This document shows, one piece after another, positions 26,034 to 38,485 of a stretch of 64,000 nucleotides of DNA. Position numbers and translations under genes: made by a program. The first letter of the stretch is position 1. Every line of letters begins with the position of its first letter. Source of the stretch: a bacterium. GTDB taxonomy: Bacteria; UBA8248. The DNA is taken from positions 416,001 to 480,000 of the forward strand of contig OZ241996.1 of assembly GCA_965204535.1 (NCBI GenBank), in the 5' to 3' direction. The notes below the pieces were generated by a model. It was not told where the DNA came from. It saw nothing but the letters and a program-made list of their open reading frames with translations, and did not search any database.

Positions 26034-26996
26034 ATGCAAATCGTTATTCCAGACGATTGCTTCCGCTTGTTTGAAGACTCCGAAGCCCTCGGGCGCCTGC
26101 GCACCTTGGGCGACGTGCATTACTACACCGAGAATGCTGAGAGCGAAGTATCGCTCCGCGAGCGCCTGAAAGAAGCGGAAATCATCCTCACGACCAGGTA
26201 CCAGACTGACTTCAAGACAACCGATTTACTGGATCACATTCCTCATCTCAAGATGATTTCCGTGATGGGCACGCGCCCGCGCATGATCGACATGGCTCGC
26301 GCGAACGAGCGCGGGATTGTGGTGAGCACCACGCCTGCCGCAAGCGCCTTTTCGGTGGCCGAGCACACGATGATGCTGATCCTGGCGTTGGCGAAAAGAA
26401 TGCCGCTCATGTTCCCCGCCATGAAGGGGGGTGGCTGGCCGCAGGATCCAGGAGTCGAACTTGCCGGGAAGACGCTGGGACTCATCGGTTTCGGTCACAT
26501 AGCTCGTCTGGTTTGCCGCATGGCCTTGGGTTTCGGTATGCGGGTTATCACATGTTCTCCTTCGATGACGCCGGAGCGCGCGCAGGCGGAGGGGGCGGAA
26601 GCGGCAACTGTGGAGGAATGCCTCGCGTCTGATGTGGTATCGCTCCAACTTCATTTGCCGGCGGGCGCAGCACCCTTCATGACGCGAGAGAAATTCGCCC
26701 GGATGAAAAAGACGGCGTTTTTCGTCAACACGGCGCGCGCTCAGTATGTGGATGAGGATGCGCTGCTGGATGCCCTGCAAAACAGACGCATCGCAGGAGC
26801 CGGTCTCGACGTTTTCGAGCCTTTCGAGCCGTTGCCGGAAGAATCTGTATATCGAACTCTCGATAACGTCGTCATCACGCCGCATTCGGCCTGGATTACC
26901 GATGGCACGTATGCGAGGTTCCGCGACGTGCCGGTAGCGAACATCGAAGCGTTCTTGAGGGGTGCACCCGTAAACGTTGTCAGAGAAGACGCGTAA
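26034..26996 (+). CDS. D-2-hydroxyacid dehydrogenase family
   Basis: SVAEH, GLIGFGHIA, NTARA, GLDVF and ITPHSA motifs. Confidence 0.88.
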   Translation: MQIVIPDDCFRLFEDSEALGRLRTLGDVHYYTENAESEVSLRERLKEAEIILTTRYQTDFKTTDLLDHIPHLKMISVMGTRPRMIDMARANERGIVVSTTPAASAFSVAEHTMMLILALAKRMPLMFPAMKGGGWPQDPGVELAGKTLGLIGFGHIARLVCRMALGFGMRVITCSPSMTPERAQAEGAEAATVEECLASDVVSLQLHLPAGAAPFMTREKFARMKKTAFFVNTARAQYVDEDALLDALQNRRIAGAGLDVFEPFEPLPEESVYRTLDNVVITPHSAWITDGTYARFRDVPVANIEAFLRGAPVNVVREDA

Positions 26997-27010
26997 GAAA
27001 CCAGACGCAC

Positions 27011-27047
27011 CCGCCCCGGCAGTTGATAAGTGCCGGGGCGGTTTTTT
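27011..27047 (+). terminator. Rho-independent terminator
   Basis: CCGCCCCGGCA-loop-TGCCGGGGCGG followed by TTTTTT. Confidence 0.85.
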
Positions 27048-27051
27048 CTTT

Positions 27052-27732
27052 TTACTCTTTTTTGATCAATATGTTGTTGTAAACCAGCGCCGCCGCCACG
27101 CCGCCGATGATCGGCCCTATCCAGTAGACGAGGTGATTGATGCCGTCGAAGCCGCCTCCGGCCAGTGCGGGACCGAACGTGCGGGCCGGATTCATGGATG
27201 CGCCCGTGAGTGGGCCACCCATCAAAATGTCTGCGGCGATGGTGAGGCCGATCGCGAAACCGCCCACGTCGGGGTGTCTGTCGTCCACGGCGGAGCCCCA
27301 GATAGCGGTGACAAGGAAGAACGTGAGGATGATTTCGATCAGAATCCCCATGCCGAAGCTCACGTCACTTGCCAGCGTCGGTGTTCCCAGGTTCACCTTT
27401 TGCCAGACGTCGGCGGCAAAGATGATTCTCAACAGGATGCCGGCCACGGTTCCGCCCACGAGTTGGCTGATGATGTAGGAGATACCCGTGCCGCTGTCTG
27501 TTTTTTTGGTCACCATGAAGCCGATCGTGACTGCAGGATTGAAATGACCGCCCGAGACGTGCCCCATGGCGGAAATCATGACCGAGAGGATCAAACCATG
27601 GGCCAAGGCGATGCCGATTAAACCTACGGCTCCGCCCGTTTTCTGATTCAAGATGATGGAGCCCGCGCCGATGAAGCACAGTGCAAACGTGCCGATGGCT
27701 TCTGCTACGCAGGCCCTTCCTGTAGGACTCAT
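27052..27732 (-). CDS. Aquaporin (MIP family)
   Basis: SGGHFNPAVT and SMNPARTFGP NPA boxes; AAGGAG RBS before ATG 27732. Confidence 0.95.
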   Translation of the reverse strand: MSPTGRACVAEAIGTFALCFIGAGSIILNQKTGGAVGLIGIALAHGLILSVMISAMGHVSGGHFNPAVTIGFMVTKKTDSGTGISYIISQLVGGTVAGILLRIIFAADVWQKVNLGTPTLASDVSFGMGILIEIILTFFLVTAIWGSAVDDRHPDVGGFAIGLTIAADILMGGPLTGASMNPARTFGPALAGGGFDGINHLVYWIGPIIGGVAAALVYNNILIKKE

Positions 27733-27849
27733 TTTTTTCTCCTTGACCATTCGGGCGAAAAATTGAAGGAATCTTCATGCCGCTATTGACACAAGCAGAT
27801 GGTCTCCGGGTAAAGAAAATGGCCTATTCCAAAGTCTCATTATAGCAAA

Positions 27850-28809
27850 TCATGATGAATGCACCACGTTTTGCGGGTTGCCCGAGAGTGCGGCGGCAAT
27901 GTTTTCCACCGACATCAAAAGTCCCGCTTCGGTAACCTCAGGTGTGATGCCTGCATTGTGCGGGGAGAGAACCACGTTTTTCAGTTTCCCGATCGGATGG
28001 TTCGGGGGCAGAGGCTCCTGATCGAATACGTCAAGACCTGCCGCAGCCAAGGCCCCGCTTTCCAATGCCGCTATGAGCGCTTCTTCATCCACGATAGGCC
28101 CCCGCGCGGTGTTCACCAAAATGGTATCCGGCCCCATGCGGGAGAATGCCTCGGCGCCGATCATGCCGATGGTGTCCGCCGATTGCCGTACGTGAATCGA
28201 GACGACGTCGGCCTGCTCATACAAAGTGTTCAAATCGACGAACTCCAGCCCTGCTTCTGCGGCGAAATCATCGTCCGGATGAAACGTCCAGGCGATGAGC
28301 TTCATTCCGACCCCGGCGGCGATGCGGGCCGTCTGGCGGCCGATGGCGCCAAGGCCGATGAGGCCGAGCGTTTTTCCGTGCAATTGCGTCATCTGTCCCC
28401 GTGGCCACTCGCCCGTCCGTATGGCGGAATCATTGACGGGTATCTGGCGCGCGGCCGCCATCATCAGGGCCAGGGTGTGTTCCGCCACGGAAACGGCGGC
28501 CACTCCAGGTGTGTTCGATACGATGACGCCTGCGCTCTCGGCTGCCTTCAAATCGACGTGATCCGTGCCCGTGCCCCAGATCGAAAGTACCTTGAGACCG
28601 CCGCAATTCGAGAAAAAATCCGCGTCGAACTTGCAAAAAGCCCGGATGTTGATGATGCCATCCGCCCCGGTGACGCGTTTTAGCAGTTCTTCTGACGTCT
28701 GTGGGTTGGAGGTATGGATTTCCGCATCCCCGATCTCCCGCAGACGGGTCTCTGCGGAACTGCCGGTGAAAACGGAAGGGTAGTCATCCGGTACGACGAT
28801 TCGGTTCAC
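27850..28809 (-). CDS. D-2-hydroxyacid/phosphoglycerate dehydrogenase family
   Basis: GTG start (NRIVVPDDY); GTGTDHVD, GLGAIG, NTARGPIVDE and LSPHNA motifs; the 563-aa ORF extension is the OsmC antisense strand. Confidence 0.88.
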   Translation of the reverse strand: MNRIVVPDDYPSVFTGSSAETRLREIGDAEIHTSNPQTSEELLKRVTGADGIINIRAFCKFDADFFSNCGGLKVLSIWGTGTDHVDLKAAESAGVIVSNTPGVAAVSVAEHTLALMMAAARQIPVNDSAIRTGEWPRGQMTQLHGKTLGLIGLGAIGRQTARIAAGVGMKLIAWTFHPDDDFAAEAGLEFVDLNTLYEQADVVSIHVRQSADTIGMIGAEAFSRMGPDTILVNTARGPIVDEEALIAALESGALAAAGLDVFDQEPLPPNHPIGKLKNVVLSPHNAGITPEVTEAGLLMSVENIAAALSGNPQNVVHSS

Positions 28810-28926
28810 GAAATAGCCCCTTATACGAAAGAAAATGTAAGCTTTGGAGGTTCTCTTACGTCGCCCTTGCGTGCATAATAACGTTTTTCTGCTGCCATTC
28901 TTATGACACCGAAGGAGACAAGACAA

Positions 28927-29481
28927 GTGGAACCTCTCGATCCGCGTAAAGACAGCGCTGTTCCCGGTGAACGCGCCATCGACAAGCCCGAACTTCCCAC
29001 CCAGGGCTATGCTTTCACCATGTCCGCCGACACCGAAACGATAGAGGGTAAGGGCCAGCTCAAACTGGGGACACACAGACACTTCGAAGTGTATTGCGAT
29101 GAACCGCCCCGCATCGGCGGGGAAGACTCCTACCCCCAACCGCTTTGCTACATTGCCATGGGGGTGGGGTTCTGACTGCTCACCCAGCTTGCGCGGTACG
29201 CGCATATGATGAAAGTGTCCTTCACGCGCGCCAAGGTGCACGTGGATTTCGATTATTTCTTGCAGGGTTCCGTTCTCAAGGGAACGGTGAATGCCGGATG
29301 CAACGAGGTGCGTACGCACTTTGAAGTGGAATCCGATGAACCGGCGGAGAAAATACTGGCAGTCATCAAAAATGCGAAGCAGGGATGTTTCGCCGAGCAA
29401 ATGGTGACGGACGCCGTTCCTCTGAAAAGCACGATGAGCCTGAACGGCGAATCGATCTCTATGAGTGGTATTACGGCGTAA
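28927..29481 (+). CDS. OsmC-like redox protein, probable selenoprotein (in-frame TGA at 29173-29175)
   Basis: Both ORF halves are in one frame; DEPPRIGGEDSYPQP...MGVGF-UGA-LLTQLARYA places UGA at the conserved OsmC Cys; second Cys in QGCFAE; AAGGAG RBS. Confidence 0.82.
29173..29204 (+). promoter_or_regulatory. Candidate bacterial SECIS element
   Basis: TGCGC-GGTAC-GCGCA hairpin (29190-29204) with a G-leading loop about 20 nt after the UGA. Confidence 0.6.
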
Positions 29482-29585
29482 AGCGCCTTGCTCATAACTT
29501 GAAACAGGCCGCAACCGCCGGGGTTTCTCGTCGCCCGTCACTTGAGCCGGGAGAGGAGCGCCTCGTCCCTTAAAGACAGGAAGAT

Positions 29586-31094
29586 TTACGCGGTGTCCGC
29601 GTTCGCCTCGGCGGCGCGCTGACCCGCTGCGGTGCCCGCCAGCCGACCGTATACGGAGCCCAGGGTCAGCCCTGCGCCTCCCGGGTAGTTGAAGTAGTAG
29701 ACGCCGCCCACGAGTTCGCCCGCGGCGAAGAGCCCGGGGATGATCTCGTTTTCGGTGTTCATGACCTCCGCTTTGGGTGTTACGCGGATACCGCCGAAGG
29801 TGAACGTGATGCCCGTGGTAACGGCGAAGCCGAGATAGGGCGGCTCATCGATGGGAAGCGCCCAGTTCGATTTCGGGGGATCGATACCCTGTGTGCATTT
29901 GCCGTCTTTGATCGTCGGGTTGTATTCGCCCGACTGAACGGCGGCGTTGTATTCCTGAACGGTTTTAACGAACTCATCGACATCGATCTCGAGTTGTCCG
30001 GCAAGTTCTTCCAGCGTGTCGGCTTCGGCCTTGGTGACTTCACGGATGCGATATTCGTCGCGCAGCATGTGAACCGTTTTCTGGTCGAAAATCTGAAAAG
30101 CGGCCCGCTGGGGCTGCTGGAGGATGTTTCGGCCGTATTTTGCGTAGGTATAGTTTCTGAAATCGGCCCCCTCATCCACGAAGCGTTTTCCCTCGATATT
30201 CACGATGATGCCGAACGGATAGGAGTGCTTCTGGTAGGACTCTCCTACCGTGAGATCACCGAAGGGCGGGGCGTTCAAATCCCAAGCGACCGCGTGACAG
30301 CCGCTCCAGTTGCCGTAAGGCTGCGCTCCGATATCGAGCGCCATCTTGATGCCGTCGCCCGTGTTGTAGGGAGTGCCGCGCACTTTTGCGAGCTCCCAGC
30401 CCGGCCCCAGGTAGCGGCAGCGCATCTCGGCGTTCGCCTCGAAACCACCCGACGCCAGCACCACACCGTGCGTCTCGATTTCGTAAGGCCCATCGGGGCC
30501 TTTTACTTCGACGCCCGTCACGCCGCCCATCGGGTCCGTGAGCAGGCGCATCGCCTTCGATGCGTAGCGAATCTCGACTCCGGCCTCGTTCGCAGAATCA
30601 AGCAGGGAATCGATGAGACCGCGTCCGCCGCCCACGATCTCGAGAACCAGACCGCCCCAGAAGCGCATCTTGCCGTCCACCTTGAATGCCTGCCGGCCGC
30701 TTGCGAGGATGAGCCGCAAGCCCTTTGATTGCATCCATTTCAGGGTCGGAAACGACTCGTGGATGAGGACGGAGGCAAGGTCGCCGTCAGTCTGGTATTC
30801 GGTCAACAGGGCGAGGTCTTCAAAGAATTTTTCCGATGTGTAGGGGTCGATCTCGATATTTTCTTTCTCGGCGTCGGAAAGGTCCGGTACGAGCGAGTAG
30901 ATGTCCTCGATGCTGTTAAAGGCGAACCGAAACAAGCCTCCCGAGAAAGCCGAATTGCCGCCGCGCCATGCCTCGGGCGCTTTTTCGAGCACCAATACCT
31001 TCGCGCCCTGGTCTCGCGCCGCAAGCGATGCGCAAAGTGCGGCATTGCCGCAACCCACGACGACGACGTCGTATTTCTCTGTAGCATTCGGCAT
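29586..31094 (-). CDS. tcuA: FAD-dependent tricarballylate dehydrogenase TcuA-like
   Basis: VVGCGNAALCA, RGGNSAFSGG, GNWSGCHAVAWD, DEGADFRNYTYAKYG and NYPGGAGL motifs. Confidence 0.78.
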   Translation of the reverse strand: MPNATEKYDVVVVGCGNAALCASLAARDQGAKVLVLEKAPEAWRGGNSAFSGGLFRFAFNSIEDIYSLVPDLSDAEKENIEIDPYTSEKFFEDLALLTEYQTDGDLASVLIHESFPTLKWMQSKGLRLILASGRQAFKVDGKMRFWGGLVLEIVGGGRGLIDSLLDSANEAGVEIRYASKAMRLLTDPMGGVTGVEVKGPDGPYEIETHGVVLASGGFEANAEMRCRYLGPGWELAKVRGTPYNTGDGIKMALDIGAQPYGNWSGCHAVAWDLNAPPFGDLTVGESYQKHSYPFGIIVNIEGKRFVDEGADFRNYTYAKYGRNILQQPQRAAFQIFDQKTVHMLRDEYRIREVTKAEADTLEELAGQLEIDVDEFVKTVQEYNAAVQSGEYNPTIKDGKCTQGIDPPKSNWALPIDEPPYLGFAVTTGITFTFGGIRVTPKAEVMNTENEIIPGLFAAGELVGGVYYFNYPGGAGLTLGSVYGRLAGTAAGQRAAEANADTA

Positions 31095-34127: not shown

Positions 34128-34769
34128 CTAGCCGGGTCCGCCCTCTTCTTCCTGTATGAGTTTCTCGGCCTCGGCCATCTCGTGGAAGAGCTCGCAGGTA
34201 GCCGAGAAATCCCTTTCCAGCTTGTCGAAAAGCTCCCTGATTCGCGCGGGCGAAATGACGCTGCAGAGTTGGTTATATACCGCCTGCCAGGCGAGCGTTC
34301 CGTGCTCGCCGCGCTGGAAATCAACCTCCTCGCTCGCCGTGATGGCGTCGTATCTCTCGTGTTCGTGCTCGAGAATGTCTCTGAGCACCGGCTCGTAGTT
34401 CGGGTCGTTCGAGTTCATGTAGCGCATGAGGTAATGCCTGAATTGGGGTTCTTTTTCCACCGGCTGCGGGTCGGACATCTCGCGCAGAACCTGGCAGGTG
34501 GCGGCGAAATCCTTCTCCAGCCGCTCGAAGAGCTGCTCAATGTGGAACGGGGTGAGAATGTCCGTAAGTTCCGTAAAAACAACGTGCCACATGTGGGGAA
34601 GCCGCTCTCCGCGGGTCGACTCGGCCCCCTCGCCGACGGTGCTCTCGTCATACACCTCGTGTTCGTGATCGAGCAAATCCATGAGCACCGGCTCGTAGTT
34701 CGGGTCGGCCGAATGGAGGTAGCGCATGAGATAGGGCTTGTATTTCCGTACCTTATGGCGTCTGGGCAT
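34128..34769 (-). CDS. Hypothetical protein made of two tandem ~100-aa repeats
   Basis: GAGG RBS; YLMRY..DPNYEPVL..HEHE.YD..LE.DF.ATC occurs twice, 300 bp apart. Confidence 0.75.
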   Translation of the reverse strand: MPRRHKVRKYKPYLMRYLHSADPNYEPVLMDLLDHEHEVYDESTVGEGAESTRGERLPHMWHVVFTELTDILTPFHIEQLFERLEKDFAATCQVLREMSDPQPVEKEPQFRHYLMRYMNSNDPNYEPVLRDILEHEHERYDAITASEEVDFQRGEHGTLAWQAVYNQLCSVISPARIRELFDKLERDFSATCELFHEMAEAEKLIQEEEGGPG

Positions 34770-35680: not shown

Positions 35681-38485
35681 GTGCGCCTCTCCTGGAACGA
35701 GATGCGCGTGCGCGCGGCGGGGTTCGCCCGCGAGTGGGCGGGCGCTGCGTACGAAAAAGGCGAGACGCAGAGTTTCTACAACGAGTTCTTCGAGATTTTC
35801 GGCGTCCGGCGCCGCTCCGTCGCGCGCTTCGAAGAACACGTGAGGCGCCTCGACAACACCCACGGCTACATCGACCTCTTCTGGCCGCGCGTCCTGCTCG
35901 TCGAGCAGAAAAGCGAGGGCCGCGACCTGGAGCGCGCCTACGGGCAGGCGGGGGAATACTTCGACGCCCTGCCCGAAAGAGAAAAACCCGGCCACATCCT
36001 GGTGAGTGATTTCCAGACCTTCGAGCTTTACGACCTGGACGAGCGCGAGCGCACCGCCTTCTCCCTCGCCGACCTGCCCGCCAACGTCGAGAAATTCGGC
36101 TTCATCCTGGGCGTGCGCCGCCGCGCCTTTCGCGATCAGGACCCCGCCAACATCAAGGCCGCCGAACTCGCGGGGAACCTGCACGACGCCCTCGCCGAGG
36201 CGGGCTATACGGGGGACGATCTCGAACGCTTCCTGGTGCGCGTCGTCTTCTGCCTCTTCGCCGACGACACGGGCATCTTCGAGCCGCGCGACATCTTTTT
36301 GAACTACGTCGAAGAGCGCACGAGCGAGGACGGCTCGGACACCGGGGCGCGGCTGGCCGAACTGTTCCAGGTGCTGGATACGCCTGAGGATGCGCGCCAG
36401 AGGACGCTGGATGAGGATTTGGCGCGCTTCCCTTACGTGAACGGCGATTTGTTCCGGGATGCCCTGCGCATTCCTTCCTTCAACGCCGCCATGCGGAACG
36501 CCCTGCTCGAAACCTGCCGCTTCGACTGGTCGAACATCTCGCCCGCCATCTTCGGCGCGCTCTTTCAATCCGTGATGAACCCGGCGGAGCGCCGCGCGCA
36601 GGGGGCGCACTACACGACCGAGAAGAACATCCTGAAAGTCATCGAGCCGCTCTTTCTGGATGACTTGCGCGCGGAGTTCGAGCGCCTGAAAGCCCGCAGG
36701 GACAGCCGCCGCTCGGCGGAACTCAGGCGGTTTCAGGAAAAACTTGGCCGTATGAATTTCTTCGACCCGGCTTGCGGGTGCGGAAATTTCTTGATCATCG
36801 CCTACCGCGAACTGCGCGAACTGGAGATGGAAGTGATCCGCGAACTGCGCTCCGACGAGATACAGCGCGAACTCGACGTGGCCGGGCTTTCCCAAATCAC
36901 CGTGGATCAGTTCTACGGGATCGAACTCGGCGAGTTTCCGGCGCGCATCGCCGAGACGGCGCTCTGGATGATGGACCACATCATGAACAACCGCCTGAGC
37001 CTCGAATTCGGCCAGACCTACACGCGCATTCCGCTCACGACCTCCCCGCACATCCTCTGCGCCGACGCGCTCGAAACCGACTGGGCGGAGCTTCTCCCGC
37101 CTCAGGATTGTTCTTATGTTTTCGGCAATCCGCCTTTCGTGGGGCATCAATGGCGCACGAGAGATCAACAGGCCGGCATGGCGCGCATTTGGGGTACGGA
37201 AGGGCAATTCAATCGGCTCGATTATGTGACTTGCTGGTTCAATAAGGCCATGCGCTACGCGGAAAAAAAGGAATCGATCGAGATCGCCTTCGTTGCGACA
37301 AATTCCATCGTACAAGGAGAGCAAGCTGGCGTTCTATGGCCGGTGTTGTTTGCCGGTGGCTTGTCTATACGTTTCGCGCATCGCACGTTTCAGTGGAATA
37401 GTGAAGCCCGAGGCTCAGCGGCAGTGCACTGCGTCATCATCGGGATGACCTTCGCCAAGGACGGAAAAAAGACGATCTATGATTACGATCATTTGCGCGG
37501 AGAGCCCCACGAGTCTGAAGTGAAGCGAATCAATGGGTATTTGATCGACGGGCCGCAGTATACGGTCCCTGCGCGCTCAAGAACGCCGATTGGTCGCCTG
37601 AAAATGCACAAGGGGAGCCAGCCGACCGATGGCGCTCGTCTCAAGAAGCCGGAAGGCGGATACATCACCTTCAGCAATCTAATCCTGAATGAAGAAGATA
37701 AGGCGGAACTTCTCGTGGCTGAGCCGGAATGCGAAAAATGGCTGAAACCTTTTGTTGGTGGTGAAGAACTAATCTCTGGGAAGTGGCGATGGTGTTTTTG
37801 GCTCAAGAACGCTGAACCGTCGGAATTGCGCGCGTCAAGGGCGATTAAGGAACGGCTTGAGCGAGTACGCGAAGGACGATTGCAAAGCCCGACGGCAAGT
37901 GTGCGCGAATATGCGAAATTTCCGACGCTGTTCACGCAGGATCGGCAACCGACGACGCCTTATCTCGCGGTTCCCGCAGTATCGTCTGAGACGCGCGAAT
38001 ATATACCGATAGCGATATAGCCGCCTACTGTTATTGCATCTGACCAAGTAAGGATTATTCCGGGAGCAGGGCTGCTTTATTTCGGTGTTCTTACTTCTGC
38101 GATGCACATGGCGTGGATGCGTACGGTCGCTGGCCGATTGAAAAGTGATTACAGGTATTCCCCGGCCATCTACAATTCGTTCGCTTGGCCAGAAATGGTG
38201 GATGACCAAGAAGCGAAAATCGTCGATTTGGCTCAGGTCGTTCTGGACGCCCGCGCGGCGTACCCCGAAGCGACGCTGGCCGACCTCTACGACCCGGACC
38301 TCATGCCGCCCGATCTTCGCCGCGCCCACCAATCCCTCGACCGCGCCGTGGATCGTCTCTACCGCCGCTCCGGCTTCGCCTCCGAGCGCGAGCGCGTGGA
38401 GCACCTCTTCGCCTTGTACGAGAAAATGCGCGCGCCGCTTGAGGTGGGGGTGAGGGGGAGGAGACGACGGCGGAGAAGGGGGTGA
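35681..38485 (+). pseudogene. MmeI-family (type IIL/IIG) fused endonuclease-methyltransferase interrupted by an in-frame TAG at 38018-38020
   Basis: GYIDLFWP..VEQKS nuclease motif, FDPACGCGNF motif I, GNPPF motif IV; same frame continues after TAG to MHMAWMRTVAGRLKSDYRYS and TLADLYDP. Confidence 0.85.

Follow-up and report, generated by a model that had tools for sequence, protein, structure and literature searches.

Within the 64,000-nucleotide stretch of bacterial DNA analysed here (the window, positions 416,001 to 480,000 of contig OZ241996.1), the forward strand carries at 28927–29481 a single reading frame of 185 codons from GTG 28927 to TAA 29481, whose sole internal stop is a TGA at codon 83 in the context MGVGF-U-LLTQLARYA (29173–29175). 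An ORF finder returns the two halves separately, as ORFs of 90 aa (28903–29175) and 91 aa (29206–29481), and the suggestion of an initial annotation that they form one frame split only by this TGA was borne out. The spacing of a Shine-Dalgarno-like AAGGAG fits a start at GTG 28927, for which it would serve as the ribosome site. A scan for promoters and terminators yielded no terminator and a single promoter-like site, located on the strand opposite to the gene, a level expected by chance. The features of the locus are collected in Table 1.

Table 1. Features of the OsmC-related gene (window coordinates)
Feature	Position	Strand	Basis and remarks
Shine-Dalgarno-like AAGGAG	28912–28917	+	seen in sequence, 9 nt before GTG 28927; putative function
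Alternative start, in-frame ATG	28903	+	
OsmC-related selenoprotein gene	28927–29481	+	184 aa if TGA is read as Sec; NF041052, PF02566, AlphaFold2, Foldseek
TGA, codon 83, peroxidatic-Cys column, UxxT motif (U-L-L-T)	29173–29175	+	homologue alignment
Asp58-Glu59 of DEP motif	29098–29103	+	41-sequence alignment; putative role
Cys154 (GCFAE), predicted resolving cysteine	29386–29388	+	homologue and Ohr/OsmC/YhfA alignments
Bacterial SECIS-like element	29185–29208	+	6-bp upper stem 29190–29195/29199–29204, GUA loop, two conserved lower pairs

Reading through the TGA, we obtained a protein that matched the NCBIfam model NF041052 for an OsmC-related (seleno)protein with 182.9 bits (cut-off 95) over model positions 2–144 of 144. 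At E 0.001 this was the only NCBIfam model matched, those for the Ohr and OsmC subfamilies giving no match. Pfam model PF02566 was matched with 47.6 bits over residues 65–167, the TGA lying inside the matched span. An AlphaFold2 model based on a 41-sequence alignment had a mean pLDDT of 94.1 and placed residue 83 within a helix of residues 72–94; the Foldseek matches listed for it were OsmC/Ohr-family or structural-genomics entries (best 2onf, E 1.6e-9), and the best sequence match among solved structures was 3CJE (E 4.9e-9). The protein combines the fold of the PF02566 superfamily with its catalytic Cys pair about 60–70 residues apart, represented here by U83 and C154.

An OsmC-like protein was among 15 new selenoprotein families described in 2005 by Zhang, Fomenko and Gladyshev, with the motif UxxT (Table 3 of that paper) and a predicted SECIS element (PMC1088965), and the relevant passages of the GOS survey (PMC2398784) and of PMC9312934 list the family again. 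PMC1976440 treats it as a known selenoprotein family that was undetected in Olavius symbionts, and the table of a 2026 review classes it as "predicted with high confidence", not as "experimentally verified" (PMC13188914). The literature searched, which lacks most subscription papers, yielded no experimental work on the Sec form. The window protein shares with this family, as outlined in parts of PMC1088965 and PMC2398784 and in NF041052 (OsmC_like_Se), the PF02566 fold, the Sec residue in UxxT (U83-L-L-T86) and a downstream bSECIS; comparison by HMM and motif revealed no family-level difference, and the HMM score, obtained over the full length of the model, is about double the curated cut-off. 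The view that this is an OsmC-like gene of a kind predicted as selenoprotein before is thus confirmed, and the gene adds a member to a family on record since 2005. It is one of three paralogues in this genome that exceed the NF041052 cut-off.

The genome (4.56 Mb in 2 contigs, 95.7% complete, 5.3% contamination) possesses the complete set of genes for selenocysteine insertion, the lack of which had been named beforehand as fatal to the selenoprotein reading. The genes selA (572.8 bits), selB (389 bits) and selD (331.5 bits) each scored over their own cut-offs, selD carrying an in-frame TGA and a G-loop hairpin of its own, and selC was identified by ARAGORN as a 97-nt tRNA-Sec with anticodon TCA, the only TCA tRNA at the default threshold. 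The same data bear on the explanation that the organism decodes TGA as Trp, Gly or Cys throughout its genome, to which the occurrence of Trp in the Sec column of one database homologue and of Gly in two might be taken to point. However, TGA is the commonest stop codon, ending 996 of 2168 long training ORFs, and the RF2 gene prfB is present, so that a genome-wide code change was rejected on stop usage, prfB and the tRNA-Sec. A sequencing error is opposed by the recurrence of the same TGA in a public contig, which is possibly the window's own source, and in dozens of other assemblies. Taken together, we consider an altered code or an error to be extremely improbable.

The TGA was conserved among the family matches covered. 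Matches over the NF041052 cut-off occurred in 31 of 41 genomes, and all 100 among the matches listed contain one TGA. In the fetched loci, the column of residue 83 was TGA in 85 of 85 aligned copies and that of residue 154 was Cys in 84, the remaining copy not being covered there; some genomes were retrieved twice, by different routes, and once duplicates are merged the 85 copies leave 51 distinct 48-nt segments. Identity among TGA copies goes down to 34%, and they span three labelled phylum-level groups, with Betaproteobacteria and Chloroflexota among the labels. The records of close homologues are labelled Nitrospinota, Nitrospinaceae or Tectomicrobia. The homologue-bearing runs with readable labels were mostly sponge metagenomes. 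A contig from a sponge metatranscriptome spans the entire gene (about 93% identity) and one from coral covers 29109–29364, with no difference at the TGA among the matches listed; these contigs come from relatives and such libraries can contain DNA, so they are no proof of transcription. Tandem pairs of TGA-containing family paralogues about 600 nt apart were observed at L064, L069 and L070.

We further compared the distribution of the TGA gene with that of selA, which was found in 29 of the 30 other genomes with a TGA gene (the exception, G017, is 79% complete) and in all 10 checked genomes labelled Betaproteobacteria or Chloroflexota. Five of the 41 genomes had selA without a TGA gene, and five others lacked selA and had no over-cut-off match; since the genomes include non-independent kin, these figures are counts and not tests.

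Homologues with a sense codon at this position mostly have cysteine. Eight full-length database matches contained Cys (6), Trp (P0005) or Ser (P0008) in the Sec column, and the latter two proteins look frameshifted. At the domain level, 199 matches were obtained in 156 database proteins, and the 154 domains with a residue in the Sec column had Cys (113), Ser (30), Ala (4), Gly (3) or one of four others found once each. Ser predominates among the 41 non-Cys residues, and most of the Ser and Ala residues belong to the N-terminal half of tandem proteins of about 400 aa. The expected pattern of Cys or UGA in this column was largely recovered. The tandem proteins (P0026, P0036, P0045, P0049) consist of two OsmC-like domains, of which the first is mostly Cys-less and the second keeps both cysteines, and resemble a fused asymmetric dimer; in P0011 (322 aa), both Cys pairs are retained. 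Twelve short database proteins stop exactly one residue before the Sec position, which, to judge from where they end, is the mark of split genes, as had been foreseen for standard gene callers.

The hairpin with a G-leading loop that the initial annotation had noticed about 20 nt downstream of the TGA, TGCGC-GGTAC-GCGCA, was located at 29190–29204, with the first loop G (29195) 19 nt after the TGA. RNAfold added one G-C pair, resulting in a 6-bp stem with a GUA loop. When five segments of this sequence were compared with 200 shuffles each, the folding energies were unexceptional in all five (z −1.46 to +0.93). Because single-sequence stability is within chance, it was dropped as evidence for a SECIS element, and the case rests on the comparison of homologues by covariation. 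Over the 51 distinct segments, 96.3% of 408 cells were paired, compared to 84.3% in shuffles, and compensatory changes were found in 34 cells, compared to 5.6 in shuffles (none of 500 shuffles as high), affecting five of the six pairs of the upper stem; controls with slid partners gave 7–57% pairing. The number of further pair types across these segments was unexceptional (103 of 500 shuffles as high), and as the sequences are related, all shuffle counts are to be read as counts rather than probabilities. RNAalifold predicted the identical six pairs unprompted.

The codons forming the stem are nearly frozen, Arg90 being CGG in 57 of 58 genes and Tyr91 TAC in 58 of 59. At 36 other 4- or 6-fold sites of the same set (loci L007–L009 and L035–L089), the commonest codon has a share of 0.56 on average and of 0.88 at most. 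Nine metagenome loci with TGC or TGT instead of TGA (five distinct), picked via a Cys-containing pattern, had 2–5 of the six pairs left, and the one with five pairs lacked the loop G. PMC13188914 gives a consensus bSECIS model with a loop of 3–9 nt, a stem of 4–16 bp, a G in the first two loop positions, a distance of 16–37 nt from the UGA and a minimum free energy of at most −7.5 kcal/mol. A check by hand gave a 3-nt GUA (or 5-nt GGUAC) loop, 6 (or 5) bp, 19–20 nt and −8.6 to −9.8 kcal/mol, all within these limits.

The machinery genes, the occupation of the column by TGA or mostly Cys, and a covarying hairpin that fits the bSECIS model agree with the selenoprotein reading, and the internal UGA is very likely recoded as Sec by means of this machinery and the hairpin. 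SelB with Sec-tRNA would bind the G-led loop and insert Sec in competition with RF2. If the TGA were instead a true stop, resulting either from a nonsense mutation or from a split of the gene into subunits of 82 and about 91 residues, the ATG codons at 29206 and 29209 might start the second part, and databases do contain the two halves as separate proteins. Yet such a split would lose residues 83–93 with the conserved LLTQxxRY, would interrupt the protein at the catalytic Cys in the middle of the predicted helix 72–94 and would leave the covarying hairpin purposeless. It would also have to account for a TGA that is fixed in paralogues and in the three labelled phylum-level groups down to the lowest identities, almost always together with selA. 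A true stop is therefore very unlikely in our judgement.

To assign the catalytic residues of the selenoprotein, we used a joint alignment with three annotated Ohr proteins, two OsmC proteins and E. coli YhfA, because the profile had given only weak matches to the single sequences of E. coli OsmC (probability 4%) and E. coli YhfA (23%). U83 fell on the peroxidatic Cys, and the second cysteine noticed earlier in GCFAE, Cys154, fell on the Cys that serves as resolving residue in the Ohr, OsmC and YhfA sequences. Ohr and OsmC have a catalytic Glu (NPEQ/NPEE) ten positions ahead of their peroxidatic Cys; this column holds Leu73 here, and Leu occurs in 134 of the 166 domains with a residue in this column. 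No conserved Arg appeared at the position used by Ohr (β1–β2 loop) or OsmC (β3–α1 loop) in the sequence alignments, in which identity is low, and another Arg, for instance R90, may occupy an equivalent place in space. The proposal of a UGA at the catalytic Cys of an OsmC/Ohr-type enzyme thus holds as far as the column of the peroxidatic Cys is concerned, but two other catalytic residues of Ohr and OsmC, Glu and Arg, are missing.

According to the relevant section of PMC5384416, the Arg/Glu pair marks the Ohr and OsmC subfamilies, and proteins without it are termed Ohr-like; the alignment places the window protein outside both subfamilies and in this Ohr-like (YhfA-type) group. It shares the two Cys columns and the absence of the catalytic Arg/Glu with E. 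coli YhfA, Ta0195 (2ONF), TM0919 (1VLA), Psyc_0566 (2PN2) and Jann_2040 (3CJE), of which PMC5384416 assigns 2PN2, and proteins from the organisms of these structures, to the Ohr-like group. It differs from these proteins in having Sec for the first Cys, about 30 additional residues at the N-terminus and the family-specific motifs DEP, LLTQxxRY and GSV, and it is only 18% identical to E. coli YhfA. Compared to the lipoyl-dependent peroxidases Ohr of P. aeruginosa and X. fastidiosa and OsmC of E. coli, the fold is alike (Foldseek: 1n2f, E 3.6e-7; 1zb9, E 2.1e-6), as are the positions of the peroxidatic and resolving residues, whereas Leu replaces the Glu of NPEQ/NPEE, neither Arg is conserved and identity is only 15–21%.

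Two-Cys chemistry and recycling by lipoyl groups are described in PMC5384416 and PMC8945050. An OsmC-type homodimer is assumed from the family (PMC5384416). The selenolate of Sec83 would attack the hydroperoxide, Cys154 would resolve the oxidised Sec83 by forming a selenenyl-sulfide with it, and re-reduction would come from a dithiol, by analogy that of a lipoylated protein. With the low pKa of selenium, the Arg/Glu pair by which true Ohr and OsmC enzymes activate their Cys would be less needed, and Glu59, invariant across the 41-sequence alignment, may replace the missing acid. We slightly favour the overall reading of one 184-residue OsmC/Ohr-fold protein with a hairpin-recoded UGA that acts as a Sec83/Cys154 hydroperoxide reductase, and the peroxidase chemistry of this residue pair, taken by itself and by analogy, would be a little better than an even guess. 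The earlier label of a Sec/Cys peroxidase therefore stands for the Sec and Cys columns, but its peroxidase part is less sure because the catalytic Glu and Arg are absent and the activity of Ohr-like/YhfA proteins is unsettled; for what is a well-supported selenoprotein gene, the chances of this label are about even.

A genuine selenoprotein without peroxidase function, in which Sec83 and Cys154 form a disulfide, persulfide or selenium oxidoreductase or carrier, is a real possibility, although we rate it below an even chance. Apart from the missing Glu and Arg, it is favoured by the state of knowledge on the group: PMC8945050 leaves the properties of the YhfA class for investigation, and PMC5384416 reports no peroxidase activity for the Ohr-like TvOsmC, which was reported active by another group. 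It is also favoured by the third family paralogue of this genome (designated G000; contigs C1 and C2), located at G000:C2:1924210–1924755 directly upstream of a TGA-bearing TIGR01244-like sulfur-transferase gene, an arrangement for which relatives, G002 and G016 among them, have matching neighbouring coordinates, and by the presence of TGA in five of the eight OsmC-family (PF02566) genes of the genome, suggesting specialised roles. Against it, all OsmC-fold proteins with measured activity in the sections consulted of PMC8945050 and PMC5384416 are peroxidases, the window copy has no sulfur-metabolism neighbour, and a search of the 41 genomes found no Ohr over E 1e-15, so that this role may be free for these proteins to take. 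A more specific variant, in which the Sec form of the Ohr-like subfamily would be a sulfane-sulfur or selenium reductase or carrier with Sec83 and the invariant Glu59 replacing the Arg/Glu pair and, as partner, the uncatalogued Sec-containing TIGR01244-type sulfur transferase whose gene lies just behind one paralogue, appears unlikely.

The gene neighbourhood of the selenoprotein gene offered no link to peroxides. In the flanks (window 26034–31094), two D-2-hydroxyacid dehydrogenases are accompanied by an aquaporin-like MIP gene and by a TcuA-like flavoprotein that scores over its cut-off, in an order kept mainly in the close lineage. The cluster of the divergent 2-hydroxyacid dehydrogenase was present at 29 of 58 loci, each of which is either labelled Nitrospinota/Tectomicrobia or an unlabelled "bacterium", and that of the downstream TcuA-like gene at 23 loci, one of them betaproteobacterial. 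As no neighbour is common to the whole family at these 58 loci, a conserved operon was dropped as a clue to function. Further downstream, the window contains a 213-aa ORF at 34128–34769 (−) that matches no Pfam model and includes two copies of an internal repeat (YLMRY..S.DPNYEPVL.D.LEHEHE), and a 779-aa ORF at 35681–38020 (+) with the motifs FFDPACGCGNF and GNPPF, which we take to resemble an MmeI-type DNA methyltransferase.

The genome appears to be rich in selenoprotein genes. Of 60 candidates picked by hand from a scan for coding score and hairpins, 41 had a Pfam or NCBIfam match across the TGA, one of them (L151) below the family cut-off, and a within-genome search added 8 further paralogues. 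Together with the three NF041052 genes and selD, this amounts to about 53 putative selenoprotein genes, a rough count because the scan filter showed two of four known cases among those listed and the assembly is about 5% contaminated. Frequent types were AhpD/CMD-like, UGSC, DsbA-like, PrdB/GrdB/GrdA and deiodinase-like proteins. The BSepDB paper (PMC13326102) gives 48–54 selenoproteins for UBA8248 genomes, including the record behind L064, so that a high count is already known for this lineage, in which a 78%-identical homologue of the window protein is found.

Several of these candidates deserve separate mention. The OsmC-fold genes L109 (G000:C1:288486, −) and L127 (G000:C2:987571, −) have TGA at the peroxidatic position, score under the NF041052 cut-off and show the motifs AG-U-LTG and AG-U-GLY rather than UxxT; they may represent separate Cys-to-Sec conversions. 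L150 (G000:C2:146781–147533, +; TGA at C2:147084) codes for a subunit A of CoA-transferase fold with the motif EHA-U-ASV and a strong hairpin; in its family, one TGA was found in 23 matches from 22 of the 41 genomes, whereas in paralogues of about 50% identity the codon is TGC and the hairpin is absent. TIGR01244/Blh-type sulfur-transferase-like genes with the motif H-U-xxxGR and a conserved hairpin lie at G000:C2:1923765–1924214 (−; L143, directly behind the third OsmC-like paralogue) and G000:C1:709102–709503 (+), and genes of this type occur in 25 of the 41 genomes, all of one family. The CoA-transferase-fold and TIGR01244-type candidates are absent from Table 1 of PMC13188914, and the BSepDB family list may name them. 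Identical candidate contexts at a constant offset (C1:188759/C2:2961813, C1:191750/C2:2964804 and C1:190948/C2:2964002) on both contigs suggest that several kb near the end of C2 are a duplicated segment or an assembly overlap.

For annotation, the gain lies in genes of this kind that gene callers still halve. The covariation of the hairpin and its decay in the Cys homologues provide a clean example of a bacterial SECIS element under selection, and the family offers natural Sec/Cys pairs for probing the function of Ohr-like/YhfA proteins, which the reviews PMC8945050 and PMC5384416 leave open. If the reading as a sulfane-sulfur or selenium reductase were true, it would provide the first function for YhfA-type proteins.
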